Assembly (NCBI GenBank): GCA_947258875.1
Contig: CAMYKB010000003.1
Location: 12,358 to 76,357 of the forward strand
Reading direction: 5' to 3'
DNA length: 64,000 nt
Source of the DNA: an uncultured Gammaproteobacteria bacterium
GTDB taxonomy: Bacteria > Pseudomonadota > Gammaproteobacteria > CAMYKB01
Below, one piece after another: positions 3,423-22,829 of this stretch. A program made the translations under genes and the position numbers. Within the stretch, counting starts at the first letter, position 1. Every line of letters begins with the position of its first letter. Under the pieces are notes generated by a model that made no database searches, was not told the origin of the DNA, and saw only the letters and a program-made list of their open reading frames with translations.

Positions 3423-4469
3423 ATGAACGTGCTTCATCGCCAACAGTTCATCGCATTATTGTTGTGCCTGATCATTTCGGCACTTGTCTTTGCTGGTTCC
3501 GCGCGTGCTGGACATGACGGCGCCGCCTATCATGAGTTCTCAGCTGATGCCCGGCAACAGGGCCGCGAAGCGCATCTTGCTTTTGCCTGGACTTACGGTT
3601 TCTATGAAGAGCCTAAGGTTCTGAATTACTTGCGTTCAGTCGGGGCGCGTGTCACTGAGCGCCTGCCTTACCGCATCAGGTTTTATATCCTCGATACAGA
3701 TGATGTCAATGCCTATGCAGCCCCTGGCGGCTGTATTTATGTCACGCGGGGCATGTTGGTACATTTAAATTCTGAGGCTGAGTTGGCAGCGGTGCTGGGT
3801 CATGAACTGGCGCATGTCATGGGTGATATCGGTGGGCTTGATGAGGTGTCCAGGAATACCTTGCGTGCAATGCTCGATGACGGTGCTGAGTTAAATCTTA
3901 GTAATACGGGCGACACTCAGGCACAACCCGATATGTTGCATACTAGGATGCGCAGATACGAGTTGGAGGCGGACCGGATATCGTTCGAGTTGCTGGTGCT
4001 GAGAGGCTATAACGCGCGTGCTCTGATCGATGTAATTCGCATGTTTGACGATTATGACCGCATGGTTAATGACATTCCTAAATCACATGCGCCACACCAT
4101 CAGGGGCTGGTGCACCTGTCCAACATTCATCCCGATAATCAGCGGCGCATTATGATGCTGCAGGAGGCTGTGTCTCGTTTCGATGCACAACATGCTGAAG
4201 ATGGCCGCGGCCGTTATCTGGCAATGATTGAGAATATCCGCTTTGGTAATCAGCCCAATTTAAAGGCAACGGATTCCGCATCGGATTTTCTGCAGAGGCA
4301 TGAAGTACGCAAGTTAAAACTGCTGCGTGTAGAAGGTGGTGCGCGTTATGCCGATCTGGCTGCTGACAGTAGTCTGGGGGATTCTGCCGAAGCCGTGTTG
4401 CGCACCCTGAATCGCGCTTATCCTGTGGGAGAACCTATATCAGGCGAATTTATCAAAATAATCGAATAG
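3423..4469 (+). CDS. M48 family zinc metallopeptidase (secreted)
   Basis: HEXXH motif LGHELAHVMGD. Signal peptide present. Conserved C-terminal tail LRTLNRAYPVGEP shared with the downstream paralog. Confidence 0.8.
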   Translation: MNVLHRQQFIALLLCLIISALVFAGSARAGHDGAAYHEFSADARQQGREAHLAFAWTYGFYEEPKVLNYLRSVGARVTERLPYRIRFYILDTDDVNAYAAPGGCIYVTRGMLVHLNSEAELAAVLGHELAHVMGDIGGLDEVSRNTLRAMLDDGAELNLSNTGDTQAQPDMLHTRMRRYELEADRISFELLVLRGYNARALIDVIRMFDDYDRMVNDIPKSHAPHHQGLVHLSNIHPDNQRRIMMLQEAVSRFDAQHAEDGRGRYLAMIENIRFGNQPNLKATDSASDFLQRHEVRKLKLLRVEGGARYADLAADSSLGDSAEAVLRTLNRAYPVGEPISGEFIKIIE

Positions 4470-4877
4470 CCTGAGATCACAGAAATTCAAGCCGCTAGGG
4501 TTGTTTGTTGATGATATTGTGAACTACTGCAAATTTTTCTGTTTTAGCGTCCCTAAACCTTGCCATAGACCATCAAAAGTACATACTGATATTCGAAGCC
4601 TCCCGGACAATAAGTTGTGTTGGTGGGTTTGAAACGTCGACCGCGGATACCTACCGGTATTCGCGGTTTTTGTTGGCCGGGTTGCGGGGTTATTGTTCAC
4701 TGGGTTGGTGTACCCCACTACCGGAATATCAACATATTCTGAAATGCTGTGGTGTCATCAGGATGACTCACCACTTGTACCGTTAATTGATCCGCTGATC
4801 CGCTGCCAGGGTACTTGGGTAGTGGAATACGGTAGATTGAAGGTTCTCAAAAACATTCTGTTTGGGGAGTATCTGCG

Positions 4878-5924
4878 ATGCGTTGGTTTATAGCTTGCAC
4901 TTGTTTGCTACTGACCGCCTGTGCCACAAGCAATAATGCATTGCAGCCCACTTCACTGGCACCCACCCGTGCTTATGATGCGGCCGATCAGCATCGCAAT
5001 GCTGAGGCCAACGAGCGCTTCAACGAGCTATTCGGCTTCTATGAAAACAAAGCGTTGCATCATTATGTGCGCGCAGTAGGTTCGCGAGTCAGCGCGCACC
5101 TGCCCTACGATTTCAAATTTATTATTCTCGATACGGATTACGTTAATGCCTTTTCGGTGTCGGGTGGAGATATCTATATTACACGCGGCATGTTGGCGCA
5201 TCTCGCTACCGAAGCCGAACTCGCAGCCGTGTTGGCGCATGAGGTTGCTCATGTTGTAACGCAGCACAGTGTGCGGAACCATCAAACTATTCCCGCCACA
5301 CCTAAATTTACCAAGTTTTTCGCGAACTGGTCCGGTACGCAAAAATTTGAGGACGGTGTCAGACAAGGACGGACTTCCGGGGCGGTGCGCGGCGCAGCTC
5401 AGCAAGACGAATTAATGGCCGATCGCCTGGCCATCGATTACCTGAAAAAGAGTGGTTACCAGACTTCCGCCGTGCTGGGTATGTTGCGCCTGATCGAAAG
5501 TGTGCAGCAGCTTGAAAAAGAGCTGGCGACTTATGTTGAAAGCCCAAAATTTAACGGTCAGATGCTTACTGGCCATCCCGCTATCGGGCAACGTTATGCT
5601 GAAGTGGCCAAGTGGACCGAAACCGCGGATGTTGTGCAGAATCAGCGAGATCGTAAGCGTTACCTGGACATCATTGAAGGTATGGAATATGGCAACGATA
5701 TTCAAGATCCGCGCATGTATGCCTTGGGAACCAATGACATGCAACAGCAGCAGTCACAGCAGTTGCGCATCCAAGTGGTTGCAGCGGGTGATGGCGAAAC
5801 ATACGCCGAGCTATCCAGGTATTGCCGCCTGCAAAACAATGCCGAAGCCATAGTACGTACCCTGAATAGGGCCTACCCTGAGGGTGAGCCACAGCCGGGC
5901 CAGCTCGTCAAGATCGTCAAGTAA
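4878..5924 (+). CDS. M48 family zinc metallopeptidase, lipoprotein (tandem paralog of 3423..4469)
   Basis: Lipobox LLTACATS. HEXXH motif LAHEVAHVVTQH. Same length (348 aa) and shared C-terminal motif VRTLNRAYPEGEP. Confidence 0.8.
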   Translation: MRWFIACTCLLLTACATSNNALQPTSLAPTRAYDAADQHRNAEANERFNELFGFYENKALHHYVRAVGSRVSAHLPYDFKFIILDTDYVNAFSVSGGDIYITRGMLAHLATEAELAAVLAHEVAHVVTQHSVRNHQTIPATPKFTKFFANWSGTQKFEDGVRQGRTSGAVRGAAQQDELMADRLAIDYLKKSGYQTSAVLGMLRLIESVQQLEKELATYVESPKFNGQMLTGHPAIGQRYAEVAKWTETADVVQNQRDRKRYLDIIEGMEYGNDIQDPRMYALGTNDMQQQQSQQLRIQVVAAGDGETYAELSRYCRLQNNAEAIVRTLNRAYPEGEPQPGQLVKIVK

Positions 5925-6176
5925 AAAAATCACTTACAGGCAAAAATCGATTTGATCGTGGCGGCCAGCTCTTCGCTAGCTGGTATGTCGCGTTTCTCAA
6001 AATTCCTGTGCATCCACCACATATATGTCCAGCGGACTTCATCGCTGCGCCTGTGTCCGGTGGTAGGCATACCATGCCGTCATTGCAGGGCATCATATAG
6101 GCGTCGATAAATCCCTCAATTTAGTACGCGTTGTATTGAAGAGTGTCCCTGAGTGTTTGTTAAGGGTTGTTGTGTC

Positions 6177-6809
6177 TCAGTTGGTGTGCATTGTTGACAG
6201 TTTTTCATGTAAATGGATGGGTTGCTCGGAGAGGGTATAGATGTTTCTGTCGGTGAGACTGGTGTTCACATCCAGTGAGCCCTGGTGTATCACCAGTTCA
6301 CGTTCGCGAAGATCCAGTAATTCGATTATTTCGTGTTGGTAGAGGCACAGCATGCAGGTTAGCCAGTGGCCGAGTACTTCATGTTCTGCATCGATATCGA
6401 GTGATTTCATTATCGCGGGCCATTGAGATGATATCAGCCATGGTCCGCCGGCAACCCATTGATTTACGGTAAACCAGCACAGGGGCTGCCCCGCCTTGCC
6501 CATTGAGAGCCCGGCAACATGTGCCCAGCCATCGGGATGCGAGTCATTGACATTCAATTGCGCAAAAATATGAAAATGACCGTGCTCGTCATGAGTGTGA
6601 TCGGGTGTGTGATGGTGATGGTAATACGTGCGCCAGCGATTATGTCCAAAATAGAGGTCGTCGTATGGGCGGGTCTCATCCTGATTGATGATCTTGCAGT
6701 TATGTAGGTATTCCAGAAATAACTGATGGTCGTGTGTGGACATGCCATGCATGCACTCTCGCAGATAGTGCGAGGCTTTCTTTGGCGTAATAAACTCGTT
6801 AGGCGACAT
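6177..6809 (-). CDS. Hypothetical His-rich protein
   Basis: 210 aa ORF with HHHHTPDHTHDEHGHFH cluster. No recognisable family from sequence alone. Confidence 0.45.
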   Translation of the reverse strand: MSPNEFITPKKASHYLRECMHGMSTHDHQLFLEYLHNCKIINQDETRPYDDLYFGHNRWRTYYHHHHTPDHTHDEHGHFHIFAQLNVNDSHPDGWAHVAGLSMGKAGQPLCWFTVNQWVAGGPWLISSQWPAIMKSLDIDAEHEVLGHWLTCMLCLYQHEIIELLDLRERELVIHQGSLDVNTSLTDRNIYTLSEQPIHLHEKLSTMHTN

Positions 6810-7307: not shown

Positions 7308-8267
7308 TTAGTACTCAAACGTATCCTGTTGTTTTTTCAGTTTTTTAACCTGGTTCTCGATTGCCGGGATATAGCGCAAATACTCCACCAGGGCATCGAT
7401 ATCGTCGTCAGTGAGATGTTGTAGGCTGTTGTCGACGACCTCTGCCATGAGGCTACCGGTGAAATCACCATCGGGTGTCATGCCCTGTTTAAGGAAGCTA
7501 TGCAAGTCGTCAGCTGACCAGTTGCCGATGCCTGTTTTTTTGTGTGGGGTGATATTAGGAATGGTTTCTCCATCGGGCCCGTTTCTGGTGCCCGCATAAA
7601 ACATCTTTGCATTCAGTGCGCCGCGTGCATTACGTGGCGTATGACATTCCCCGCAATGTGCGATGGCGTTGGCAAGATACGCGCCTCGGTTCCAGATTTC
7701 ATTCTGGTCAGGGGCCGCTTGAAACTCGCCGGGCTTGAAGTACAGCTTCTGCCATGCCCAGTTGACCAGGCGTAAGCGCAGATACCATGGCAGCACGTGC
7801 GCCTTGTTGGCTTGATTAACAGATGGCAGGCCTTGCAGGTAGGTGAATATGACGGCCATATCCTGTGTTTGCATCTGGTGATACGAAGTATAGGGAAACA
7901 CCGGATAGTAGTAACGGCCCTTGGGGTCTATCCCGTAGCGCAGGGCGCGGATAAAATCACGCAGTTCCCAGTTGCCTATGCCGGTTTCTGTATCGGCCGT
8001 AATGTTAGGCGAATAAAACACGCCCAGATCAGTTTCAATGCGTCGCCCACCGGCGAGTGGAAGGCCGTTATTGTCGTCGTCGGTATGACAACCCAGGCAG
8101 CCTGCGGCGTTGAATATATATTCGCCTTGGCCGATTAAGTCGTTGTGATCAAGTAACTCTGGAGATGCGATGGGCCGCAAGCGCGGCCAGATCAGCGCAT
8201 CAAAAGAAGCCCATGCAACAACGAGTAGCAGGGGCCATAAAATAACACGGCGTAGTTTACGCAACAT
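7308..8267 (-). CDS. Dihaem c-type cytochrome (alcohol/gluconate dehydrogenase cytochrome-subunit-like)
   Basis: Two CXXCH motifs (CLGCH, CGECH), each followed by GIGNW segments. N-terminal TM/signal anchor. Confidence 0.75.
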   Translation of the reverse strand: MLRKLRRVILWPLLLVVAWASFDALIWPRLRPIASPELLDHNDLIGQGEYIFNAAGCLGCHTDDDNNGLPLAGGRRIETDLGVFYSPNITADTETGIGNWELRDFIRALRYGIDPKGRYYYPVFPYTSYHQMQTQDMAVIFTYLQGLPSVNQANKAHVLPWYLRLRLVNWAWQKLYFKPGEFQAAPDQNEIWNRGAYLANAIAHCGECHTPRNARGALNAKMFYAGTRNGPDGETIPNITPHKKTGIGNWSADDLHSFLKQGMTPDGDFTGSLMAEVVDNSLQHLTDDDIDALVEYLRYIPAIENQVKKLKKQQDTFEY

Positions 8268-8322
8268 CAATAATTAAGGGGAGTAGGATCACTTGTGATC
8301 CACTCCCCGTAATACAATTTGA

Positions 8323-8787
8323 CTATTCTTGTTTTTCGCGAAAATCCTTGTGACAGCCTTTGCAGGATTTGCCCAGTGCCTGGAATTTGGCGCCTATTGC
8401 TTCCTTGTTTCCGGATCCTGCAGCTTGCGCAAATTCATTTGCGGCCTTTGCTGACGCATCAGCGGCTTTTTTGAAGTCGTCCCATTTCTCCCAGACTTCG
8501 GGCTTGGCGCGTGTCGGGGTATCACCAAAGTCGGAACCTTCAGGGAAAAGCGCGGTGATCTCTTTCGATAAGTTTGCAATCGCGTCAGCGTGCATTTGTA
8601 AATGGCCCTCGGGGTTGACCTTGCCTTGTGCGATCTGGGCGGCTGCGCCGGTATGTCCGCCGAGTGCCTTCATCATAGCCTGTCGATACTTGATGCTGTT
8701 CTCTGGGCTGTCTCCAGCATAAGCAGCGGTTGTGCAAAACGACACTGCAGGCAGTGTAAGAGAAATAATAAGACGACTGATGTTCAT
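8323..8787 (-). CDS. Cytochrome c' (class II cytochrome c)
   Basis: Signal peptide. Four-helix-bundle-like sequence with a single C-terminal CKGCH. GGAGAGGAGAAC RBS before the ATG at 8787. Confidence 0.7.
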   Translation of the reverse strand: MNISRLIISLTLPAVSFCTTAAYAGDSPENSIKYRQAMMKALGGHTGAAAQIAQGKVNPEGHLQMHADAIANLSKEITALFPEGSDFGDTPTRAKPEVWEKWDDFKKAADASAKAANEFAQAAGSGNKEAIGAKFQALGKSCKGCHKDFREKQE

Positions 8788-8857
8788 GGTGTTCTCCTCT
8801 CCTTGTAGCAGATATTTAGTTCTCACTTACGAAATAACCAGACTCACTGGTTGTCGG

Positions 8858-9358
8858 TTACATGCCAATCTTGATCAGTTCAACATCAAATATCAGTGTG
8901 GCATTCGGACCAATCAGCTTACCGGCGCCGCGTTCGCCGTAGGCAAGTTCTGGCGGGATAAACAGGCGATGTTTGCCGCCTTCCTGCATCAGTTGCAAGC
9001 CTTCAGTCCAGCCTTTGATAACGCGATTGAGTGGAAAGCTTGCGGGTTTGCCGCGGCTGTAAGAGCTGTCGAACTCAGTGCCGTCAATCAAAGTGCCGCG
9101 GTAATGCACGGTGACCGCGTCAGTCACCTGCGGTGAGGCGCCAGTTCCTGGTGTTAGTACCAAATATTGCAGGCCGCTCGCTGTGGTGACAACGCCCTGT
9201 GTTTTTGCATTCTCGGCGAGAAAAGCCGCGCCAGCATCCAGGGGCGCTGATTGACTCTGCATTACCTGGTCTTGTCCATTGTCCTGGGTGCCGCAAGCGG
9301 CCTGGGTGGTTAACATAAACAGTGCCAGCAAGCTGGAGGTTATCAGGGGCTTTTTCAT
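8858..9358 (-). CDS. FKBP-type peptidyl-prolyl cis-trans isomerase, lipoprotein
   Basis: Lipobox TTQAACG. FKBP core [43 protein letters not shown]...[10 protein letters not shown]. Confidence 0.85.
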
Positions 9359-10246: not shown

Positions 10247-11599
10247 ATGTACCAGGTTTATATCTCGTCGACTTATACAGATCTGCAGGATTTCCGTGCT
10301 ATCGCGGCCAAGGCTGTGCGTCATCTGCAGTGCCGCGCGGTCGCGATGGAGGACTACCTGGCCAGCGATGAGCGCCCGCTCGACCGCTGTCTGTCGGATG
10401 TGCGCGCCAGTAATGTGTATGTCGGTTTGTTCGCCCGGCGCTATGGCTTCACACCGCCCGGCCATGACAAGAGCGTCACCCACCTGGAATATGAGGAAGC
10501 CGGCCGGGCTGGTATACCGCGCCTGATATTTATCCTCGATGAGGCGGTGGACTGGCCGGATTCAAACTGTGATCCAGATCCTTCAGCGATCCGGCAACTG
10601 CGCACAGCACTACAGGAAAAGCACCTCGTCAGTACCTTTCGCAGTGGCGATGAGCTTGATGCCCGCCTGACGGCTGCGCTGAGCCAGGAATTGCTGAAGC
10701 GCGGCGGCAGTGGCAAGGTCGAAATACCGGAATTATTGCCCTATATGAGTGACCGCAGCCGGCAGCGTGACCAGTTGGCCGATGCGCTGGATGTCCACCT
10801 CGACAAGCGGCCACGGCGGCCCTTTGTCGCGATCGTCTATGGCGATGAACGCGAGGCGCACAGCGCCTTCCTGGAACGGCTGGAGCGGGTGACGTTCCCC
10901 GATCTGCTCGGGCTGAGTGCGGAAGCAGGGCCGGTGCATCATCTCGATCTGCGCTGGAGCGAACCTGGAGGTTCCCTGGACGAACGCGAACGACGCCTGC
11001 AGTGCCGTCTTTCCGAAAGCCTGACCGGCGAGCGCCGCGCGGATACACAGACCATGGCACAGGAACTTGCCCGGCACCGCTGCGCGGTGATGATTTCCAC
11101 CTCGATTCTGAGTGCCGACTGGCAGGCGGACGAGGCGAAACTCGTGCAACACTGGCTCAAGCTGTGGAAGGCCTGGCCGGACCTGCCACCTGGTCAGAGG
11201 TTGGTCATTGTATTGAGTTTTCATCTTAAGGACTGTTCGCAGGCCTCGTTCTGGGCGCATCGCAAACTCATCAAGAAGAATCGATGCGTCTGCGAATTCG
11301 TGACCGAACTCGAGCGGCTTGCCGGTGACGATCTATCGCTTGTAAGCCTCGACAGGCTGGAAGCTATACGCGAGTCTGATGTGCTGAACTGGCTGGAAGA
11401 GCATGCCGGGAAGTTCTGCCGTGAATCCCGTGGTGCGATCCGTGACCCACTGGTGCTCGCAGAACAGCTCAAGCCCTGGCTGCGCGAATTTTTTCGCAAG
11501 GAGGGTGTAGCGGACGAATCGGGTGGTATTCATATGGAGGAGCTGGCGCGTGAACTGCGGCGCCAGCTGCACCGCTGTTTAAACGAAGGAGGAATCTGA
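10247..11599 (+). CDS. DUF4062 (TIR-like) domain protein with C-terminal degenerate P-loop/STAND-like region
   Basis: N-terminal MYQVYISSTYTDLQDFRAIAAKAV...NVYVGLFARRYG is the DUF4062 signature. GGGAGCGG RBS before the ATG at 10247. Segment PFVAIVYGDEREAHSAFLERL looks like an NTPase strand-1/P-loop position lacking GK[ST]. Stop is 3 nt before the next gene. Confidence 0.7.
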   Translation: MYQVYISSTYTDLQDFRAIAAKAVRHLQCRAVAMEDYLASDERPLDRCLSDVRASNVYVGLFARRYGFTPPGHDKSVTHLEYEEAGRAGIPRLIFILDEAVDWPDSNCDPDPSAIRQLRTALQEKHLVSTFRSGDELDARLTAALSQELLKRGGSGKVEIPELLPYMSDRSRQRDQLADALDVHLDKRPRRPFVAIVYGDEREAHSAFLERLERVTFPDLLGLSAEAGPVHHLDLRWSEPGGSLDERERRLQCRLSESLTGERRADTQTMAQELARHRCAVMISTSILSADWQADEAKLVQHWLKLWKAWPDLPPGQRLVIVLSFHLKDCSQASFWAHRKLIKKNRCVCEFVTELERLAGDDLSLVSLDRLEAIRESDVLNWLEEHAGKFCRESRGAIRDPLVLAEQLKPWLREFFRKEGVADESGGIHMEELARELRRQLHRCLNEGGI

Positions 11600-11602
11600 C
11601 CC

Positions 11603-12598
11603 ATGGCAAACGCCAACTGGTATCAAGGCACGGGAGCACAAAGCACAACGGCGGTCGACCTGCCGGCATCGCTACTGGATCGGCACGCCAATCCGGCAGG
11701 CTATTTGGCTGATCCCGGTCTCGTAGACGCGGTCAACGTCGCGCTGCATCTTGGTCAACCCCTGCTGTTGACCGGGCAACCAGGTACCGGCAAGACCCAG
11801 CTCGCCAACAGCCTCGCCTGGGAACTCGGCTACGAGCCGTTGCTCAAGTTCGAGGCCAAGTCGACCAGCGTTGCGCGCGATCTGTTCTACACCTACGACA
11901 CCCTGGGCCGCTTCCACGCCGTGCATACCGGCCAGGGCGCTGCCGATAGCCTCGACTATATCCGCTTCAACGCCCTGGGGCTGGCGATCCTGCGCGCCAA
12001 CGATCCCGCCGACGTGGCCCAGCTGCTGGCCGATAATACGCAACATACCGGGCAGCAGCGCTCGGTGGTGTTGATCGATGAAATCGACAAGGCGCCGCGC
12101 GATTTCCCCAACGATCTATTGAACGAAGTGGAGGGCATGTATTTCAGGATCCCCGAGCTCGGCAATGCGACCGTGACCTCGGCGCCTGAGTTGCGGCCGA
12201 TCCTGGTGCTGACCAGTAATTCGGAAAAGAACCTGTCCGAAGCCTTTCTGCGGCGCTGCGTCTTCTACGACATCCCCTTTCCTGATCGCAAGCGTCTCAC
12301 CCACATTGTGCACTCGCGGCTGGGCGAGGCGATTACGGGGCAGGGGGCGCTGCTGGAGGATGCACTCAACCTGTTCGAACGCCTGCGCGATCCGGCCAGT
12401 GGCCTTCATAAGAAACCTTCGACGGGCGAATTGCTTGCCTGGCTGCAGGTACTTGTCACGCATTCGCAAGACAACGATGACTACATCCGCACTGCAGCCA
12501 TGGTCGAGCCGGCGCTTGCTGCGTTGATCAAGACCACCGAAGACCGGCCGAAAGCGCGCGAACTGCTCAAGGACTGGTTGAAAACGAAACCGGCGTGA
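11603..12598 (+). CDS. MoxR-family AAA+ ATPase
   Basis: Walker A LLTGQPGTGKTQLA. Walker B VVLIDEIDKA. Sensor/Arg finger region LVLTSNSEKNLSEAFLRRC. Stop codon overlaps the GTG start of the next gene (GTGA). Confidence 0.9.
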   Translation: MANANWYQGTGAQSTTAVDLPASLLDRHANPAGYLADPGLVDAVNVALHLGQPLLLTGQPGTGKTQLANSLAWELGYEPLLKFEAKSTSVARDLFYTYDTLGRFHAVHTGQGAADSLDYIRFNALGLAILRANDPADVAQLLADNTQHTGQQRSVVLIDEIDKAPRDFPNDLLNEVEGMYFRIPELGNATVTSAPELRPILVLTSNSEKNLSEAFLRRCVFYDIPFPDRKRLTHIVHSRLGEAITGQGALLEDALNLFERLRDPASGLHKKPSTGELLAWLQVLVTHSQDNDDYIRTAAMVEPALAALIKTTEDRPKARELLKDWLKTKPA

Positions 12599-15500
12599 GC
12601 ACGACCTCCGGCAACACGTCGATTGATCCCTCTGTCGAACCGGGAGACGCGGTAACGCTTGATGGCGACAACCTGCTTTCCCTGCTCGATAGCCTGCGAC
12701 ATGACGGGTTTCCCATCGGCGTTAAGGAATATATCACCGCACAGGAAGTCGCCATCGCCTGCAGTGATGATTATGGCATCGACCCAACGCGGCTACGCAA
12801 CTGGCTGGCGCCGGTCCTGTGCACTAACCCCGACGAACAGAGATTGTTTTACCAGCGCTTCGCCGACTGGTGGGTGCAGCGGCAACCGGTAACCGCTATA
12901 CACACGGTTGAACCAGCGCCGGTAAAAACCGAGCTTGACGAAGATGTACAACGCGCACGTCCCTGGAAGTGGGTGGCACTTGCGGTCGGGTTGATTGCAG
13001 TAGCAGTGCTTGTTCCGCCGCTGCTGAAGCAGCCCGAAAATATTACACCGCCGCCAGTCGTGTCGGGGACCGAACCATCGCAGCCAGTGCGTCCCGACCC
13101 GTCTGTTTCGGTTGAGCAGGAGCCGGTTGGGCCGCAATTGCTCGTCACGGGTGAGGTTAGGGATATTGATGGACGGGTGATTGACGGCGCGACGGTGGTA
13201 GCGGTGAAGGAGTTGAAAGGACATGATGACCATGTTTGGTCTATAAACTTCAGCCCGGATGACACACGCGTGGTTACGGCGTCAAGAGATAAAACAGCGC
13301 GCATCTGGGAGGCAGTCAGCGGGCGCGAGCTTGCACGATTGGCGCATGATAAGTGGATCCAGTCGGCCGTTTTCGGTCCGAATGGCAGGCGCGTGCTCAC
13401 GGCGTCACTAGACGGCACAGCGCGTATCTGGGATGCTGTCAGCGGGCGCGAGCTTGCACGATTGGTGCATGATGGTTGGGTCAGTTCAGCCGTTTTCGGT
13501 CCGAATGGCAGGCGCGTGCTCACGGCGTCACTAGACGGTACTGCACGCATCTGGGACGCGGATAGCGGGCGCGAGCTGAGGCGATTGCCGGGTACGGAAG
13601 GGATCCTTTCCGCTGTGTTTAGCCCGGATGGCAAGCTAATTGCCACAAACGGCGTTGGCGCGAAGCTCCTGCACTGGGCCGGTAGCGACTCCACCGGCAA
13701 CTTCGATCTCACCTCCAACCTGATCGGCGGCACCCGGCTCCGGGTTTCCCACCCTGACTATCAGGATGCCTCATTGCACGATATACCCGATGGTTTCGGC
13801 AAGTTAACTGTCGAGGCCAGCCTGGCGCCACGCCCGGCACAGTGGCTGGAGGTATTTATACGCAATCGTGAGCTGACCCGTGTCACGCTCACTCTGCTGC
13901 CATTGCTGGTTGTTACCGCCTGGTGGTTGTGGCGGCGCAAACGTCGGCAGCTGATCCTGGAGCGGCGCACGGTACGCAACGTTGACGCGCTTGCAGGTGT
14001 TGCGATGCCCGAGCCGCAGCACAACCTGTATCGCGACGAGTCCTTTGTGCGCGCACGCATCGAGGCGCGGCGGCACCAGGCAGGCGGGCAAGGCGATCTC
14101 GATGCTGATGCCACTGTCGACGAAACGGTGCGGCAGCTCGGCTGGTTCTCGCCGGTTTACAAGACGCGTCTGCGCCTGCCGGCCTATCTGGCGTTGATCG
14201 ACCGCAGCGGCTTCCGCGATCAGCAGGCACATCTGATCGACGAATTCCTCGACTGTCTGGAAGAAGGTGGCGTGACGGTCGACCGTTATTACTTCGATCG
14301 CGATCCACGCATGTGTGTCACAGCAGTGAGTGGCGACAGCACCCGGCGCGCGGTGCGTGAACTCGCCGGCCGTTATCCGCAGCATCGCCTGTTGCTGTTT
14401 AGCGATGGCAGTGGACTGCTTGATCCCGTGACCGGCCGGCCTGCAACCTGGACAGAACTGTTTTCCGCCTGGCGCGAACGTGCGCTGATGACACCGGTGC
14501 CGGCCTTTCACTGGTCATCACGCGAGGTCGAGCTGGCGCGGTTGGGTTGTAGCGTGTTACCCGCGACACCTGAGGGTCTGTTGGCCTTTGTCGAACAGCT
14601 GGATGTGCCGGACAGTATTGTGCTGCCGCCAACGACGCACTGGCGTGCGCCATTCCCCGAAATCATCGCGGCGCATCCGGCGCGTTGGTTGCAACGCAAT
14701 GAACCGCAGCCGGAGGACAGTGACGAACTGCTGCGTCAGCTGCGGCGTTATCTGGGTGACGACAGTTACCGCTGGCTGTGTGCGCTGGCTGTTTATCCCG
14801 AACTCGACTGGTACCTGACGCTGTATCTTGGTTTGCATCTGCAGCGTGAGAATGGCACGCCGGTACTCGACGAAACGGCGCTCCTGAGTCTGGTGCGTCT
14901 GCCCTGGCTGCGACGCGGCAACATGCCTGACTGGTTGCGCCTGCGTCTCATGGCCGAACTGTCCAGCGATGATGAAAACACCGTGCGCGGGTTTTTGCGC
15001 GAACTGTTGCGCGCCCGACTGGAGGCGCCCGGTAGTCGCTTCCGCCTGGATATCGCGCATCCATCCGACAACATGCAGCGGCGCGGCTGGACCCGGTTCT
15101 TTTCCGATCTGCTGCGTACCGAGCCTGATGATAGTCCGCTGCAGGATCGCGTATTCGTCAATTTTCTGCTCGGCAAGCGTCCGCAGCGCTTGCAGGTGCT
15201 GGCGCCGCGCAACTGGCATCGCTGGGTTTATGAACGGGGTTTGAGTGCATTGGGTTTGCGTGAACGCACAGGGTTGTTGCTGGCGGCCAGCACATCTGTG
15301 CTGCTGGCGGTCAGCGCCTTTTCGCTGATTGATCTTGCCAAGGCAATACAGGCGGGCGGTAACGACTCGCAGATTGTCCAGCGCGACTGGCAACCGGCGG
15401 ACGAGCAGGCTCCACCACAGATTAAAGATGTTTTCGTGGAGAAATTTGGTGGTGGCTCTGGTATTCGCTATTCAGTACGCGATCTCAAGCTCAACGGTGA

Positions 15501-16653
15501 GGGTAACAACATTCGCCTGGCACAGGGCGGTCAGGTGAAAGCGACTCTGGAAATCAATCACGACTGTCGCGAATGCGGCGGCGCCATCAATCAGATCATC
15601 GTTGGCCTGGCCGGTGAAGACAGGGCGCAGGCCTGCGTCTGGAACGGTGGGCAGTCCAGTCGCGGCTGGCAAACGGTATCGTTCACACTCAGGATTCCGC
15701 AAGCACCGGGGAGCTACGAGGTGCGTACCCGCTACGCCCAGGCCTACAACTGTAAAGATGCAATCGGCTGGTGGAAGATAGACCGTTCCCAGGGACCAGG
15801 CGAGCAATCGACCATCGGCGTGGTGGTCGTTGAAGCTGTCTCGCAGCAAAACGATACCCGGCAGACGACAGCTAAACAACAGCCCAAGGCATCGGACGTC
15901 GTTGCAACGTTGAACGAAAAATGGCTCGCGAACGTCCTGCCTTTCTATAAAAAGGCTATCGAGGGACGTTATCCTTTCGATCTGAAAAGTGAGAAGAGCG
16001 TGACCTTGAAAGATTTCGGCATGTTCTTCGGTGAAGGCGGAATTGTGCAGCGCTTCACTGAACAAGAGCTGGCGCCCTACCTGGATACCTCGGGTGGTCA
16101 ATGGCGTTGGCGTGCTGAAGCGCAGGGTTTTTCAAGCGCATCATTAGTCGAGCTTCAACGCGCGAACCGCATCCGCGCAGCGTTCTTCCAGGACGGCGGG
16201 GAAATACCGTTGCTGCGGTTCAGCCTTAAACCCAGTCAACTCGACAAGAAGGCTGTTCGCTTCACGCTGGAGATTGACGGGCAACGCCTTCAATATGCGC
16301 ATGGCCCGAAACGTACCACAGACATAACATGGCCGGGCAACACCAGGCTCAAGCGCGCACTGTACACGTTTGAAGGTCTGGATGGTAAAAGCGCGAGCGT
16401 TAAGGAGGAGGGTGCGTGGGCATGGTTGAAGATTCTGGACCAGGCCAAGATTAGTGCAACGAGGGGCCAGGATGTTTCGCGTGTAACCTTCAGTAAGAAT
16501 AGTCTTTCCGCTAGCTTCGATCTGCAGACAAGCAAAGGAATAAACCCTTTCGACCAAGACTTGCGGAAATTCCATTGTCCGCAGCGTTTAAGTTCAGGTG
16601 GCAGCAGTGAACTGTCTCCGCCTCAGCCACCAACAATTATCAGATCGAAATAA
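12595..16653 (+). CDS. Large multi-domain membrane protein: TM – WD40 repeats – TM – vWA-like – TM – IcmF/TssM C-terminal-like domain
   Basis: 1352 aa. TM helices at aa ~123-143, ~428-446 and ~893-912. Four WD40 blades, aa ~205-360 (GH...TASRDKTARIWEA, TASLDGTARIWDA x2). vWA-like strands LALIDRSGF and LLLFSDGSG. C-terminal ~230 aa contain GAWAWLKILDQAKI, IDGQRLQYAHGP...ITWPG and NPFDQDLRKFHCPQRL, patterns I recognise from the TssM/IcmF periplasmic C-terminal domain. Translationally coupled to the MoxR gene. Confidence 0.8.
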   Translation: MSTTSGNTSIDPSVEPGDAVTLDGDNLLSLLDSLRHDGFPIGVKEYITAQEVAIACSDDYGIDPTRLRNWLAPVLCTNPDEQRLFYQRFADWWVQRQPVTAIHTVEPAPVKTELDEDVQRARPWKWVALAVGLIAVAVLVPPLLKQPENITPPPVVSGTEPSQPVRPDPSVSVEQEPVGPQLLVTGEVRDIDGRVIDGATVVAVKELKGHDDHVWSINFSPDDTRVVTASRDKTARIWEAVSGRELARLAHDKWIQSAVFGPNGRRVLTASLDGTARIWDAVSGRELARLVHDGWVSSAVFGPNGRRVLTASLDGTARIWDADSGRELRRLPGTEGILSAVFSPDGKLIATNGVGAKLLHWAGSDSTGNFDLTSNLIGGTRLRVSHPDYQDASLHDIPDGFGKLTVEASLAPRPAQWLEVFIRNRELTRVTLTLLPLLVVTAWWLWRRKRRQLILERRTVRNVDALAGVAMPEPQHNLYRDESFVRARIEARRHQAGGQGDLDADATVDETVRQLGWFSPVYKTRLRLPAYLALIDRSGFRDQQAHLIDEFLDCLEEGGVTVDRYYFDRDPRMCVTAVSGDSTRRAVRELAGRYPQHRLLLFSDGSGLLDPVTGRPATWTELFSAWRERALMTPVPAFHWSSREVELARLGCSVLPATPEGLLAFVEQLDVPDSIVLPPTTHWRAPFPEIIAAHPARWLQRNEPQPEDSDELLRQLRRYLGDDSYRWLCALAVYPELDWYLTLYLGLHLQRENGTPVLDETALLSLVRLPWLRRGNMPDWLRLRLMAELSSDDENTVRGFLRELLRARLEAPGSRFRLDIAHPSDNMQRRGWTRFFSDLLRTEPDDSPLQDRVFVNFLLGKRPQRLQVLAPRNWHRWVYERGLSALGLRERTGLLLAASTSVLLAVSAFSLIDLAKAIQAGGNDSQIVQRDWQPADEQAPPQIKDVFVEKFGGGSGIRYSVRDLKLNGEGNNIRLAQGGQVKATLEINHDCRECGGAINQIIVGLAGEDRAQACVWNGGQSSRGWQTVSFTLRIPQAPGSYEVRTRYAQAYNCKDAIGWWKIDRSQGPGEQSTIGVVVVEAVSQQNDTRQTTAKQQPKASDVVATLNEKWLANVLPFYKKAIEGRYPFDLKSEKSVTLKDFGMFFGEGGIVQRFTEQELAPYLDTSGGQWRWRAEAQGFSSASLVELQRANRIRAAFFQDGGEIPLLRFSLKPSQLDKKAVRFTLEIDGQRLQYAHGPKRTTDITWPGNTRLKRALYTFEGLDGKSASVKEEGAWAWLKILDQAKISATRGQDVSRVTFSKNSLSASFDLQTSKGINPFDQDLRKFHCPQRLSSGGSSELSPPQPPTIIRSK
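13313..13560. repeat. Near-identical tandem ~123 bp nucleotide repeats encoding WD40 blades
   Basis: gtcagcgggcgcgagcttgcacgattgg(c/t)gcatgat...gccgttttcggtccgaatggcaggcgcgtgctcacggcgtcactagacgg occurs twice almost perfectly (13313-13435, 13436-13558), with a diverged third copy following. Confidence 0.85.
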
Positions 16654-18223: not shown

Positions 18224-20605
18224 TTATTTGGTCTCGCTGTAGGCCTTGAGCAATTTGTTCATTAGCTCGATGTGCTGCGCGTCGTTCAGCTGACCTTTGG
18301 TGGACACTTTTGCCCACAACTCTGCATTGGTCATTTCACGATGGCAGCCCATGCACAATCCGGTACGATCCATGGCGTCACGCATCTCTTTGGGTAATGC
18401 GCGCGATAACGGCCAGTGTGTGCCGACTGTCTGAACCTGTTGGTCATCCTTGATAATCGTCGACCAGTCAAAATCCAGGGCCTCAATCTTGGGAATCTGG
18501 ATCTGGTAGTTCCTGGGGATGACTTTACCGGTCTTCTGATCAATCAGGTCTTCAACGATATCCACCGGATAACGCGTCTGGAATACACCACCGGAAATAC
18601 CGTACCCCATTGCCTTCGGATTGTTATGGCAGGACTCGCAGGTACGGGCCTTGCGCTGTGCCGAATGCGGTTGCACCGGTGCCATATCAAGTGCCAACGG
18701 AGTACGCTCCTGTCCCAGCTCTTTCTGCTCGTCGTACGATAAAGCTATCTGGTCGAGAGCAACGGTTCTGCCGTCACGCGCTTTAACGGTGTAAACGATC
18801 TGGCAGCCCGGCATTAATGGGGTAACACGGCCCTCACCGTTGATACCCAGTACCGGTTCTTCCCAACGCAGGTAAGCACGAGTTTCATACACCTTACCAG
18901 GACTCTGAATACCTTTTACGCCTAGCGGTGACTCAGCGGTTGAACCGTCCGGGTTGCGTTGACTGCCGGATGCAATCCAGTCGGTATCATGTTTAGGTTT
19001 ACCATCTTTGTCTTTGCCGTAGTCAACCTGTACATGGCAGCCATAACATTGTGGCACCCATGATGCGTGGCAGGCATAACATTCCAGGCTTTCGGCATGT
19101 TTTTGGACCCGGCTCATGGCCACCATGGCATCCGGACTCTTCCACGCGTTGTCGATCTGCAGCTGTTTAAGCAACGGAACTTCAAAGTCATTGCCGGTTG
19201 CCGAATGCAACATGGCCTTCTTGCCATCCTTGACAACGTTGCCGAATGGATTGCCACGGGCGGTCTTCAGATAACCATCCTTCTTGTCGTACAGCGTGGC
19301 GAAGGCTGCGGTTTCCGGCAGTGGGCTCGTGGCCAGACCACGCGCTTTGCCGGTCAGTGGTTGGTCAAATTCCTCGCCATGTCCCAGCGGTAATTCCCAG
19401 GGGAATTGCTCTGGCGTGCCATGGCAGTCCTGGCATTCAATTTCCACCTGTGCCAGCGTGGTGCCCGGAATATTGCCATCACCATGCATGTCGATCGATG
19501 TATGACAATCCTGGCATAGCAGGCCACCTTCGGGATTCCCCGGGCGGCTCTTGATCTGGTGATGCAGATCATCAGAGATAAACAGGTACTGCTTGGTGTG
19601 CAGTTTTGGCTGTTTTTCGCCTTTCTCGTTGAACGGCGAACCGTAAGGGAACTCCATCAATCCCTGATACGTCACGCCGATACGCTTGCCGCGATTGTGG
19701 CAGGAGTTGCAGGTCTCGACGGGGATACCCGAATACTCAATACCACCATGAGTCACTTTGGACTTGCGAGTAGACTGTATCTGGTGGGTCAGCATGTGGC
19801 CCTTTTCTGTCTTGTCGATGGTCGGGTCATTACCTTCGTAGATGCCTTCATTGCCATAGGCTATGTGGCAGGCTGAACACCCCTGACCGCGGTAATCACC
19901 GCGTTTTTCACGGCCCTTGACTGTAACGTGGCAGCGTTGGCATTGCTGGCGCTGGTAGGTAAAGCCAGCAAGCTTCGGGTTTTTCTCGATGTCTTCGACC
20001 GATGGGTTGGGTATTTGCGACAATTCAGTGGGGAACTGTTCCTTGTGCGCGGCTATCATGTCCTTCATGTAGGCCTTGTAGTCATCGGTACCCACAGCAG
20101 GTACAGGTCCGTCACCGTCCTTGATATCATAATTACCCCAGGGAACCTTATGATTCTGCACCTCTTCGATGCCCCAGGTGTGCAGGTTGCCCTGAATCTT
20201 ACCGGCTTCGGTATTCATTAAGGATTTTTCCAGACGTTCAGAATAGCCCAGGTGGCAGGCGCTCTGACCACAGGTAAATTTGTTGACATCCATCGCCCCG
20301 GGATCTGGGTAAAACGTTTGCGGGCCGTTGGCTTGCTTTAGTGTCGCCGGTGAGCCGCTGTGAGCCGCTTTTGCCTCGCTTGCGCCTGGGTTGCCGCCAT
20401 GGCACATGACGCAACCTTGGCTATCCCCGTGCGATGAACCCAACGCCTTGATCATTGCCATCATGGCGCTGCCTTCCTGGCGTATCTGTTCGAGGCCGTT
20501 GTGACAACTCATGCAGCCTTCGCCGGCTCCGATCTTGGCATCTGCAGTGAACGTGATAAATAGCGTAACGAGGAATAAAGCTAGTGCCCTTGCGGTCGTT
20601 CCCAT
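18224..20605 (-). CDS. Multihaem c-type cytochrome (~12 haem-binding motifs), secreted
   Basis: 793 aa with signal peptide and GAGAGGG RBS. 11 CXXCH motifs (CMSCH, CVMCH, CQRCH, CSACH, CNSCH, CQDCH x2, CYACH, CYGCH, CESCH, CMGCH) plus one CX4CH (CGQSACH). Confidence 0.85.
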   Translation of the reverse strand: MGTTARALALFLVTLFITFTADAKIGAGEGCMSCHNGLEQIRQEGSAMMAMIKALGSSHGDSQGCVMCHGGNPGASEAKAAHSGSPATLKQANGPQTFYPDPGAMDVNKFTCGQSACHLGYSERLEKSLMNTEAGKIQGNLHTWGIEEVQNHKVPWGNYDIKDGDGPVPAVGTDDYKAYMKDMIAAHKEQFPTELSQIPNPSVEDIEKNPKLAGFTYQRQQCQRCHVTVKGREKRGDYRGQGCSACHIAYGNEGIYEGNDPTIDKTEKGHMLTHQIQSTRKSKVTHGGIEYSGIPVETCNSCHNRGKRIGVTYQGLMEFPYGSPFNEKGEKQPKLHTKQYLFISDDLHHQIKSRPGNPEGGLLCQDCHTSIDMHGDGNIPGTTLAQVEIECQDCHGTPEQFPWELPLGHGEEFDQPLTGKARGLATSPLPETAAFATLYDKKDGYLKTARGNPFGNVVKDGKKAMLHSATGNDFEVPLLKQLQIDNAWKSPDAMVAMSRVQKHAESLECYACHASWVPQCYGCHVQVDYGKDKDGKPKHDTDWIASGSQRNPDGSTAESPLGVKGIQSPGKVYETRAYLRWEEPVLGINGEGRVTPLMPGCQIVYTVKARDGRTVALDQIALSYDEQKELGQERTPLALDMAPVQPHSAQRKARTCESCHNNPKAMGYGISGGVFQTRYPVDIVEDLIDQKTGKVIPRNYQIQIPKIEALDFDWSTIIKDDQQVQTVGTHWPLSRALPKEMRDAMDRTGLCMGCHREMTNAELWAKVSTKGQLNDAQHIELMNKLLKAYSETK

Positions 20606-21013: not shown

Positions 21014-22558
21014 TTATTCCACTAACGCGGCCTGGATCACGCCGACGCGAATGCTGTTAAGCACGGCCTTATCTTTCGCCGGGCCCAACCCTGTAGGAAC
21101 CACTACGGCCTTGCCCGCGGCGAGGCTGCGAATATCGCGGGTGATCTGGCGGCGCTTTCCCTGTGCATCCGGGTATTGTACGGCGACCTTAACATTGCGC
21201 ACTGCATAGGATGTCGGGTTTTGTACCTGCACCACCACATAGCCGTTCTGATTGAGACCAACCCGGGTCTTAATGTAATTACCCGGGTTTTGCGGCAGAT
21301 CCAGTCGCAGCAGTGATTGCGAGGCCTGCTTGCCGGGTTCGGAGTTGGAACCCGCTGCTGCCTTGTAATATTTCAGGGCGCTGGCACGATCACCGGCGGC
21401 CAATGTCAGGTTGCCGAGTGAATTCAGCGCGGTCGCGGTGGGCAACAATTTAACACTTTGCTCGAGATCGCTGCGTGCACCGCTGCGATCACCAAGACGC
21501 TCGCGTGTGAGGCCGCGCTGTACGTAGTAATGAAAAAACTGATTGTTATACTGCAACGCCTTGTTGTAGTCGGCGAGTGCTGATTTGAGGTTGTTTTGCT
21601 GAAACTTTGCGTCGCCGAACAACGAATGAAATTGTGCCTCTCGCGGTTCCATACGAATGGCTTTTTGTGCCAGAGTCATCGCCTTACGGGTATCGCCCTT
21701 GGCCAGGGCTTTGCGGCCCTCGTCGTGGGCCTTGTAGGCTTCGCGGCTGCGTTTGATGTGCGCTATCTTGCTTTGATAGCGCTGTGTGCCCAGTTCTCCA
21801 CCTGATGGCAGGCTTTTCGCGTGTTCGATGTTGTTATCGACACGTTCCTGTGACGGCGGGTGGCTGGCAAACAGGCCGGATAACCAATCTGACCGCCGGC
21901 CTTCGGACAGGCGTACGAAGGTTTCTTGTAGGCTGATGGCGGCACGCGGATCGTAACCGGCTTTGGACATGTAGTTCATGCCATAAAAATCGGATTCGCG
22001 TTCCGCGTCACGGCCGTATTTTTGATTAAGCAGGCCCGCCGCAAGTTGCGCGCCACCGACAGCGAGATTGGCGTAATCGCTATCGCGTGCGGCAATGCCG
22101 GTTGCCATGATGGCGCCTTGCAGCAGCATGCCGCGTTCCATACCTTTGGCGCCATGACGTGCGGCGGCATGTACCACTTCGTGACCCAGTACCGCGGCAA
22201 CTTCAGCTTCGTTATTGAGTTCCACCAGCAGTCCACGGTTGACGGCGATTTTGCCGCCGGGCAGCGCCCATGCGTTAGGTGTGGAGTTGTTGAGTACCAC
22301 GAATTCATAGGGTAATTGCCGGTCACTGACGGCGGCCAGGCGGTTGCCGATACTCTGCACATAACGCGTCAGTTCCTGATCGACGTTGTATTGGCCACCC
22401 TGCATCTGCTGGCTCACCAAGTAGTTCTGTTTGCCCAGCTGGATTTCCTGGGCTTCAGACACCAATGTGAGTTCGCGTTCTCCCGTTACAGGATTAACGG
22501 CACAGCCCTGTAACGCAACCGCCGCAAGTATGAATGCATAAAGGATGTTTCGCATCAT
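21014..22558 (-). CDS. BepA/YfgC-like M48 metallopeptidase with C-terminal TPR domain, lipoprotein
   Basis: Lipobox ALQGCAV. HEXXH motif LGHEVVHAAARH. TPR-like C-terminal half. Start at MMRNILY (22558), preceded by GGGGA. Confidence 0.8.
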   Translation of the reverse strand: MMRNILYAFILAAVALQGCAVNPVTGERELTLVSEAQEIQLGKQNYLVSQQMQGGQYNVDQELTRYVQSIGNRLAAVSDRQLPYEFVVLNNSTPNAWALPGGKIAVNRGLLVELNNEAEVAAVLGHEVVHAAARHGAKGMERGMLLQGAIMATGIAARDSDYANLAVGGAQLAAGLLNQKYGRDAERESDFYGMNYMSKAGYDPRAAISLQETFVRLSEGRRSDWLSGLFASHPPSQERVDNNIEHAKSLPSGGELGTQRYQSKIAHIKRSREAYKAHDEGRKALAKGDTRKAMTLAQKAIRMEPREAQFHSLFGDAKFQQNNLKSALADYNKALQYNNQFFHYYVQRGLTRERLGDRSGARSDLEQSVKLLPTATALNSLGNLTLAAGDRASALKYYKAAAGSNSEPGKQASQSLLRLDLPQNPGNYIKTRVGLNQNGYVVVQVQNPTSYAVRNVKVAVQYPDAQGKRRQITRDIRSLAAGKAVVVPTGLGPAKDKAVLNSIRVGVIQAALVE

Positions 22559-22829
22559 GTAGATCGTCCCCGGTGGGTTTGGGTAAGTGCACAGGCAATA
22601 TTGCCTGGAACCTATCTCAAAGTTTGTCTCACACGCCAATTCAGTGCTGCGGTCCGCGCCTTTATGTCATCAGGTATTGTTATGACGCGCGATCCACGAG
22701 TTGAGATAGATTCTGGTAGTTAATTTATACGGACTCTAGCATGTGTTTGTGCCTCCGGTGCCTGGTGAGCGCCGGGATCAGCGGGGATTTCACAAAACGT
22801 TACAAAATAGAGACCGGGCAGGGCAGTGA

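Follow-up and report, generated by a model that had tools for sequence, protein, structure and literature searches.

The inactive STAND (iSTAND) ternary systems described hitherto are composed of a MoxR ATPase, a vWA protein and an inactive STAND protein (Kaur, Burroughs, Iyer, Aravind, eLife 2020, PMC7159879). In these systems the iSTAND part is found with N-terminal fusions to TIR or DRHyd, to peptidases or to EADs, and the vWA components often carry an N-terminal 4-helix CoxE-like domain, transmembrane (TM) segments and envelope-binding domains (PMC7159879). The ternary system was restated in a preprint on BREX, which proposed that the iSTAND modules are sensors or regulators (bioRxiv 10.1101/2025.10.09.681413). 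In this study we analysed a stretch of 64,000 nucleotides from an uncultured Gammaproteobacteria bacterium (contig CAMYKB010000003.1, positions 12,358 to 76,357; referred to below as the window, in whose coordinates all positions of this locus are given), and within it a short segment at 10817..10880 (+ strand), located in the gene for a protein with an N-terminal DUF4062 domain. The original prediction had proposed this segment as a degenerate P-loop of an inactive STAND/NTPase-like region, paired in trans with an active MoxR ATPase. We consider it highly likely that the segment is the dead Walker A of the iSTAND domain of an iSTAND ternary system.

Neither the domain nor the architecture is new: the former is Pfam family PF19995, and the latter was described in eLife 2020 (PMC7159879). 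The pseudo-ATPase was correctly recognised by a reader of the sequence alone, and it adds no new kind of system. Two details are worth recording: the former P-loop has been conserved and not eroded, and a TssM/IcmF C-terminal domain is carried by the vWA-like partner.

The iSTAND domain and its former nucleotide site

The gene for the DUF4062-iSTAND protein (10247..11599, + strand, stop codon included in the end coordinate) was taken from the list of open reading frames (ORFs) and its translation, and encodes 450 amino acids. The listed ORF opens upstream, at TTG 10223, and ATG 10247 was chosen as the start because all the homologs, together with P0001, an identical 450-amino-acid protein in a public collection, begin at the same Met (MYQVYISS). 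The segment at 10817-10880 is in phase with this frame and corresponds to residues 191-212, RPFVAIVYGDEREAHSAFLERL, and the peptide quoted in the original prediction, LDKRPRRPFVAIVYGDEREAHSAFLERL, was found in its translation. Two antisense ORFs of 143 and 175 amino acids overlap the iSTAND coding region (10629-11260, minus strand); these are most likely artefacts of the G+C-rich sequence, because homologs and a confidently modelled fold were obtained for the + strand frame.

The segment lies inside a match to Pfam iSTAND (PF19995) that covers the alpha/beta core at residues 165-317 (10739..11197, + strand), with a score of 57.2 bits against a gathering cut-off of 24 (E 3.5e-15; profile positions 1-152 of 163), and the same family was matched by all 26 of the 26 aligned homologs. 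In order to examine the fold, an AlphaFold2 model of residues 150-450 (10694..11596, + strand) was built on the 26 homologs, giving a mean pLDDT of 90.4 and a pTM of 0.88. The modelled part consists of an alpha/beta core with five strands and, C-terminal to it, a short bundle of three helices, in the order alpha0-beta1-loop-alpha1-beta2-alpha2 (two helices)-beta3-alpha3-beta4-alpha4 (long)-beta5 followed by the bundle, and this order of elements, as modelled, is that of an AAA+ core with a reduced lid. Foldseek matched the model to TnsC, ORC/Cdc6, Rad24, CED-4, Apaf-1 and NRC4 (E 2e-4 to 1e-3), and its alpha/beta core is that of an AAA+/STAND-type P-loop NTPase. The check suggested with the original prediction, a structural test for a P-loop fold as opposed to an unrelated helical domain, therefore ended in an AAA+-like model.

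In P-loop NTPases Walker A is always located at the beta1/alpha1 junction. The segment takes in strand beta1, the turn of the pseudo-P-loop and the beginning of helix alpha1, and the model places a strand at residues 193-200 (FVAIVYGD), a turn at 201-204 and a helix from H205 to about 220, in good agreement with the predicted succession of hydrophobic strand, turn and helix. The description of the turn as rich in glycine was too strong, as it holds one glycine only, G199. At the beta1/alpha1 junction stands GDEREAHS, a pseudo-Walker A (G199-D-E-R-E-A204-H205-S206; 10841..10864, + strand) in register with GxxxxGK[ST]; its spacing is exactly that of G-x4-G-K-[ST], the modelled helix begins at H205, at the position of the Lys, and the GK[ST] is absent, as had been predicted.

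For a view of the whole family, a profile of the iSTAND part only was searched against 1.84 billion cluster representatives, and a total of 2296 representatives were found at E<=1e-3, with 571 at E<=1e-30. Columns were counted in the best 150 representatives, with mutual identity <=50%, after alignment to the profile. The canonical Walker A, GxxxxGK[ST], was present in 0 of the 150. In its place the family shows the consensus (H)-G-D-E-x-[EQ]-[CAS]-H-[DE], with H198 in 135 representatives, G199 in 149, D200 in 109 and E201 in 116, a variable position 202, E or Q at 203 (75/75), C, A or S at 204 (69/43/28), H205 in 125 and D or E at 206 (97/20), followed by the family columns F208, R211 and L212. 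The flagged pattern is not one of chance, because it lies inside the PF19995 match and G199 is kept in 149 of the 150 representatives. The protein of this locus departs from the consensus at Y198 (H in the family), A204 (C), S206 (D), S284 (H) and S286 (H) (10838-10864 and 11096-11104).

Compared with a working P-loop, the phosphate-binding Lys has given way to His, three residues of the loop are acidic, and the Mg-binding Ser/Thr appears in the family mostly as Asp or Glu. The position of Walker B, assigned by the topology of the model, falls on strand beta3 at residues 281-288, VMISTSIL (11087..11110, + strand; model strand 132-139), the end of which carries neither Asp nor Glu; this protein has S-T-S there, where about 44% of the family have H-T-H, and His284 and His286 co-occur in 42 representatives against about 29 expected under independence. 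Upstream of the loop, a conserved D-R-S-x-Q motif at residues 169-173 (10751..10765, + strand) stands at the start of the helix that the model places before beta1, and the family form of it, D/N-R-x-x-Q, is nearly invariant (R in 146/150, Q in 146/150). This motif would correspond to the 'GRxxE / LPHRE' motif that precedes Walker A in the ATPases of the STAND and Cdc6/ORC types.

Both Walker motifs are thus lost (GDEREAHS; VMISTS), as in inactive STAND proteins, and this part of the original prediction, too, held when checked. The site appears to be acidic and to be devoid of every residue required for the binding of Mg-ATP, and since the Walker A Lys, the Ser/Thr and the Walker B acid are lost, the iSTAND domain is not expected to bind or hydrolyse ATP. 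The segment is best described as the former Walker A element (beta1, turn and alpha1) of an AAA+ domain of the STAND/ORC-Cdc6 type that is catalytically dead. An active STAND NTPase of the NACHT, NB-ARC or AAA_16 type was considered and rejected, as neither Walker A, GxxxxGK[ST], nor Walker B, hhhhD[DE], is present. It is improbable, in addition, that the loop is a non-canonical P-loop which binds ATP or ADP without hydrolysis, as in a STAND-type sensor locked in one state. The length of the Walker A loop and its first Gly are kept, and so are the AAA+ fold and the upstream R/Q motif, but His stands in place of the Lys, 117 of the 150 representatives have Asp or Glu where the Ser/Thr would be, two to three acidic loop residues would repel phosphates, the Walker B acid is missing, GK[ST] is found nowhere among the 150, and Pfam and two papers class the domain as inactive.

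The partner proteins and the effector domain

Directly downstream, beginning 3 nucleotides past the iSTAND stop codon, is the gene for a MoxR-class AAA+ ATPase of 331 amino acids (11603..12598, + strand; identified from its translation and from Pfam AAA and AAA_5), which overlaps the third gene by 4 nucleotides. Its ATPase motifs are intact, with GQPGTGKT as Walker A and VVLIDEID as Walker B, so that an ATPase with active-site motifs is indeed encoded beside the inactive STAND protein, as the original prediction had assumed. Among the sequences of solved structures in the Protein Data Bank (PDB), the nearest were the AAA modules of Midasin, and the class 'MoxR' within AAA+ is our assignment from the motifs, Pfam and these PDB sequence matches. 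PADLOC gave only generic AAA matches for this ATPase. A partial NCBIfam match to the MadB family AAA-type ATPase (NF047784), which covers the C-terminal half only and scores 89 bits where the cut-off is 475, was dropped as a lead; the literature found for MadB dealt with unrelated topics.

The third component is a protein of 1352 amino acids (12595..16653, + strand; annotated from its translation, Pfam WD40, IcmF_helical and IcmF_C, TIGR03348 and a hydropathy scan). It is composed, in order, of an N-terminal helical region, a TM segment, a WD40 block, a second TM segment, a predicted cytoplasmic part (residues ~455-890) made up of a vWA-like core with a helical domain, a third TM segment, a Cys-containing part and a TssM/IcmF C-terminal part. 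The TM segments are at residues 126-144, at about 437-453 (a hydrophobic stretch followed by RRKRR) and at 894-912, with the WD40 repeats between the first two (Pfam WD40 5.2e-31). The N-terminal helical region is conserved and common to P0037 and P0038, and the homologs carry variable PASTA, PEGA, OmpA and WD40 modules. Residues 1104-1313 (15904..16533, + strand) match the helical and C2-like domains with which the type VI secretion protein TssM/IcmF ends (PF21070 1.6e-08, PF06744 5.9e-26), and TIGR03348 matched residues 1100-1330 at 1.2e-66. By the positive-inside rule, the periplasm is the predicted location of both the WD40 repeats and the TssM-C domains, which suggests that the protein may read the cell envelope or be anchored to it.

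The vWA-like alpha/beta domain was located at residues ~495-670 (14077..14604, + strand), and the best structural match of this core was the MIDAS domain of Midasin. Its MIDAS is degenerate, D536-R537-S-G-F (residues 536-540; 14200-14214) standing in place of DxSxS with the F-S-D-G strand kept. The D and R of this pseudo-MIDAS are nearly invariant across 26 relatives, and the metal site has probably been lost and an Arg gained.

The N-terminal part of the iSTAND protein is a DUF4062 domain of TIR-like type at residues 3-85 (10253..10501, + strand; Pfam PF13271, E 2e-23). We equate DUF4062 with the 'DRHyd' domain of Kaur et al. 2020. The Pfam match ends at a conserved T-x-L-E81-Y-E-E-A motif, and E81 within it (T-H-L-E-Y-E-E-A in this protein) is conserved among the aligned homologs that bear DUF4062. 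In a profile search of PDB sequences, the family profile matched the DUF4062 structure of KpSwz (PDB 10wc) at E 1.4e-13. DUF4062 has been reported as a TIR-like NADase, in KpSwz (Swarozyc), which is activated by a phage portal protein, and in human TEP1, which is active inside the vault particle (bioRxiv 10.64898/2026.05.01.722283); the catalytic Glu of these NADases is E97 in KpSwz and E1008 in TEP1. A second 2026 preprint describes Evangelion as a DUF4062 defence family. Some relatives of the protein of this locus carry TIR_2 or CHAT, in place of DUF4062, N-terminal to iSTAND.

Weighing the assignment, and a possible mechanism

The PF19995 match, the AAA+-like model, the loss of both motifs and the MoxR and vWA-like neighbours together support the identification of an inactive STAND protein in a ternary conflict system. 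A number of observations weigh against it. As for the fold, the searches do not resolve the STAND, Cdc6/ORC and TnsC clades from one another, and the label STAND is best taken as that of Pfam and of the profile-profile work reported in Kaur et al. 2020 (PMC7159879). No AAA+ protein was matched for the iSTAND part in the profile searches of PDB sequences, which returned DUF4062 structures, apart from weak matches to designed helical repeats and luciferase that were rejected as noise. In hhalign, a trimmed iSTAND profile gave no meaningful alignment with the NTPase regions of the active DUF4062-STAND proteins P0030, P0031 and P0034, because the template profile was too thin; with the alignment left untrimmed, P0030 was matched through the common DUF4062 domain only. 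NACHT and NB-ARC gave no Pfam match at E<=1, AAA_16 was matched only in 1 of the 26 homologs (E 0.058), and no PADLOC model matched the iSTAND protein. The lack of sequence-level matches to solved AAA+ proteins, together with the negative hhalign result for the three active STAND proteins, is what could be said for a region unrelated to P-loop NTPases, in which the succession of strand, Gly and helix is a coincidence; we give this hardly any credence in view of the PF19995 match and of the Foldseek matches to AAA+ and STAND proteins.

As for the site itself, the equivalence of its residues to Walker A was drawn in the model from topology and the start of the helix, and the inactivity of the domain is deduced from motifs only. 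As for the partners, no Pfam vWA model matches the third component, three sub-regions of it being blank at E<=10, because of which vWA was examined by fold; the assignment is by fold only, and flavodoxin-like folds score nearly as well. The alignment by hidden Markov model (HMM) puts the Glu of KpSwz two columns before E81, in an ambiguous register. In the literature found, no defence phenotype is reported for MoxR-vWA iSTAND systems. Finally, the former P-loop is the best conserved motif of the iSTAND domain, which argues for a retained role such as the binding of a partner, metal or ligand, rather than for an inert remnant.

This last point leads to an explanation that overlaps with the identification of a dead Walker A, and that we hold to be possible though doubtful, namely that the former P-loop has become a re-purposed pocket for a ligand other than ATP, as the regulatory step of the system. 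The candidates are a metal ion, a nucleotide signal derived from NAD, and a basic side chain on the partner, for instance the conserved Arg in the D-R-x-x-F pseudo-MIDAS of the vWA-like protein. In favour of such a pocket, the loop is the most conserved stretch in the 150 representatives (G 149, H198 135, E201 116, H205 125), H284 and H286 co-occur above expectation (42 vs ~29), and in the partner the MIDAS Ser is replaced and the Arg nearly invariant. vWA/MIDAS domains generally engage an acidic residue of the ligand. On the other side, the iSTAND protein of this locus lacks H198, C204, H284 and H286, having Y198, A204, S284 and S286 instead, and the conservation could equally well be due to a network of structural salt bridges that stabilises an empty loop. 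A metal site would not be universal, because several of the candidate metal-binding residues are missing here, and a metal site in a His/Cys-rich pocket was not adopted as the main explanation, given the moderate association of H284 with H286 and the absence of most of the residues from this protein. In its most explicit form, which we put forward only tentatively, the former P-loop would be an acidic/His pocket, selected and rebuilt for docking or for a ligand, by way of which the fused effector is controlled by the vWA-like partner, a small molecule or a metal; if this is true, a phosphate-binding loop has been turned into a protein- or cation-binding switch.

For the dead Walker A in an iSTAND ternary system, a mechanism can be proposed with a confidence clearly lower than that of the identification. 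The iSTAND domain would be a non-enzymatic scaffold or sensor that keeps the DUF4062 effector, a NADase, switched off, and the MoxR ATPase would act in trans as an ATP-driven conformational switch, coupled to it by the vWA-like adaptor, whose predicted periplasmic WD40 and TssM-C modules would link the system to the envelope. Upon a trigger, either a phage or some other invader, the iSTAND protein may be remodelled or oligomerised and the hydrolysis of NAD+ turned on; depletion of NAD+ would then lead to growth arrest, abortive infection or the death of the infected cell.

The compact three-gene locus joins a NADase-type domain, DUF4062, to a putative regulatory machine, and is a good candidate for the first experiment on an iSTAND ternary system. 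The conserved former P-loop supplies targets for mutation (G199, D200, E201 and H205), and the TssM/IcmF C-terminus, together with the predicted periplasmic WD40, gives a hint of envelope wiring in this subgroup.

The locus, its relatives and comparison with known systems

The iSTAND gene is the first of three tightly packed genes on the + strand, and the genes around them, mostly on the opposite strand, encode a cytochrome c protein, a cytochrome c', an FKBP isomerase, a TPR protein and an MtrC-like multihaem cytochrome. The respiratory and periplasmic flanks are at 7308-9358 and 18224-20605 (minus strand), and include a 792-amino-acid MtrC/MtrF-like multihaem cytochrome, and genes for M48 peptidases are located near the operon at 4878-5924 (+ strand) and 21014-22639 (minus strand). 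The trio gives the impression of having been inserted into a stretch of housekeeping genes.

The gene order of iSTAND, a 331-337-amino-acid AAA protein and a large variable third protein was found in all four of the relatives examined (L001, L005, L006 and L007). A search for related loci with the single protein gave one fragment of a Gammaproteobacteria metagenome-assembled genome, at 78% identity. The L005 relative is 76% identical and has a partner with the same TssM-C terminus; directly after its iSTAND-MoxR-vWA trio lies an SLATT_1/DUF4231 gene (L005 15865-16320). SLATT domains are predicted to be effectors that form pores in response to nucleotide signals. In the window no SLATT gene follows the trio, the next ORF past 16653 being on the minus strand. 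In L007, a more distant relative, a TIR-Roc-COR protein is encoded before the trio (3458-6361 and flanks), and insertion sequence (IS) elements and a reverse transcriptase gene flank it, which suggests a defence-island or mobile context. In L001 (10371-16294; the P0010 relative) the third component is split into a 790-amino-acid ORF, which stops inside the vWA-like core (…YYFDHDPRLC…), and an overlapping 1200-amino-acid ORF with WD40 and caspase (Peptidase_C14) domains; the split is probably a frameshift or an assembly error. L003 (2379-5828) encodes a protein of 1149 amino acids in which the N-terminal AAA_16 STAND part is intact (GPAGIGKS, ALDDAQW) and which also has a region of helical repeats. 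The last 205 residues of this protein are 43% identical to residues 237-447 of the iSTAND protein, without the part that holds beta1 and the pseudo-P-loop, and homologs of the MoxR and vWA-like genes lie downstream of its gene. At the coverage of about 2x of this contig, a chimeric assembly is possible.

With the iSTAND ternary systems this locus shares the HMM match, the AAA+/STAND-like fold with the loss of Walker A and Walker B, the N-terminal DRHyd/DUF4062 fusion, the adjoining MoxR without VMAP-type extensions, and a vWA-type partner that starts with a helical domain, has TM segments and bears C-terminal modules associated with the envelope; the relatives of the locus, with the nearest genome match, are likewise Gammaproteobacteria. 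It differs in that the partner here carries a TssM/IcmF C-terminus and a WD40 block between TM segments (IcmF/TssM has 0 occurrences in the main text of Kaur et al., PMC7159879), and in that its vWA is too divergent for the Pfam vWA models and its MIDAS is degenerate.

Active STAND NTPases, such as NB-ARC proteins (Apaf-1, CED-4 and plant NLRs), NACHT and AAA_16, and among them the DUF4062-STAND proteins human TEP1 and bacterial P0030 and P0034, differ from the iSTAND protein, which has neither GK[ST] nor the Walker B acid. In addition, the iSTAND protein has a short C-terminal helical bundle and no long WD40, TPR or LRR sensor in the same chain, and the ATPase function is supplied here by the separate MoxR gene.

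The iSTAND proteins of BREX, BrxB and BrxF, were described in the preprint cited above (10.1101/2025.10.09.681413), according to which the BrxB types evolve rapidly with minimal conservation, carry an inserted three-strand cap behind strand 4 and lack a C-terminal bundle. In contrast, the family studied here has a conserved former P-loop and a three-helix bundle and, according to the model, no three-stranded insert after strand 4. The partners differ as well, being MoxR and vWA here and PglZ and BrxC for the iSTAND of BREX.

The principle of an AAA+ motor working with a vWA/MIDAS adaptor, which we assume for this locus, is shared with Midasin/Rea1 and with the pairs CoxD-CoxE, NorQ-NorD and RavA-ViaA. 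Midasin/Rea1 and the MoxR-vWA chaperone pairs mature ribosomes or metalloenzymes and have an intact MIDAS, whereas the MIDAS here is degenerate, the adaptor is membrane-embedded, and an effector-bearing pseudo-ATPase is present as a third part.

Swarozyc (KpSwz) and Evangelion, finally, share with this locus the N-terminal DUF4062/TIR-like domain and its conserved acidic E-Y motif. They are single-gene systems, the C-terminal 'AUX' regions of which sense phage proteins directly; at this locus, unlike in either of them, iSTAND takes the C-terminal place, and the gene is accompanied by two more conserved genes.

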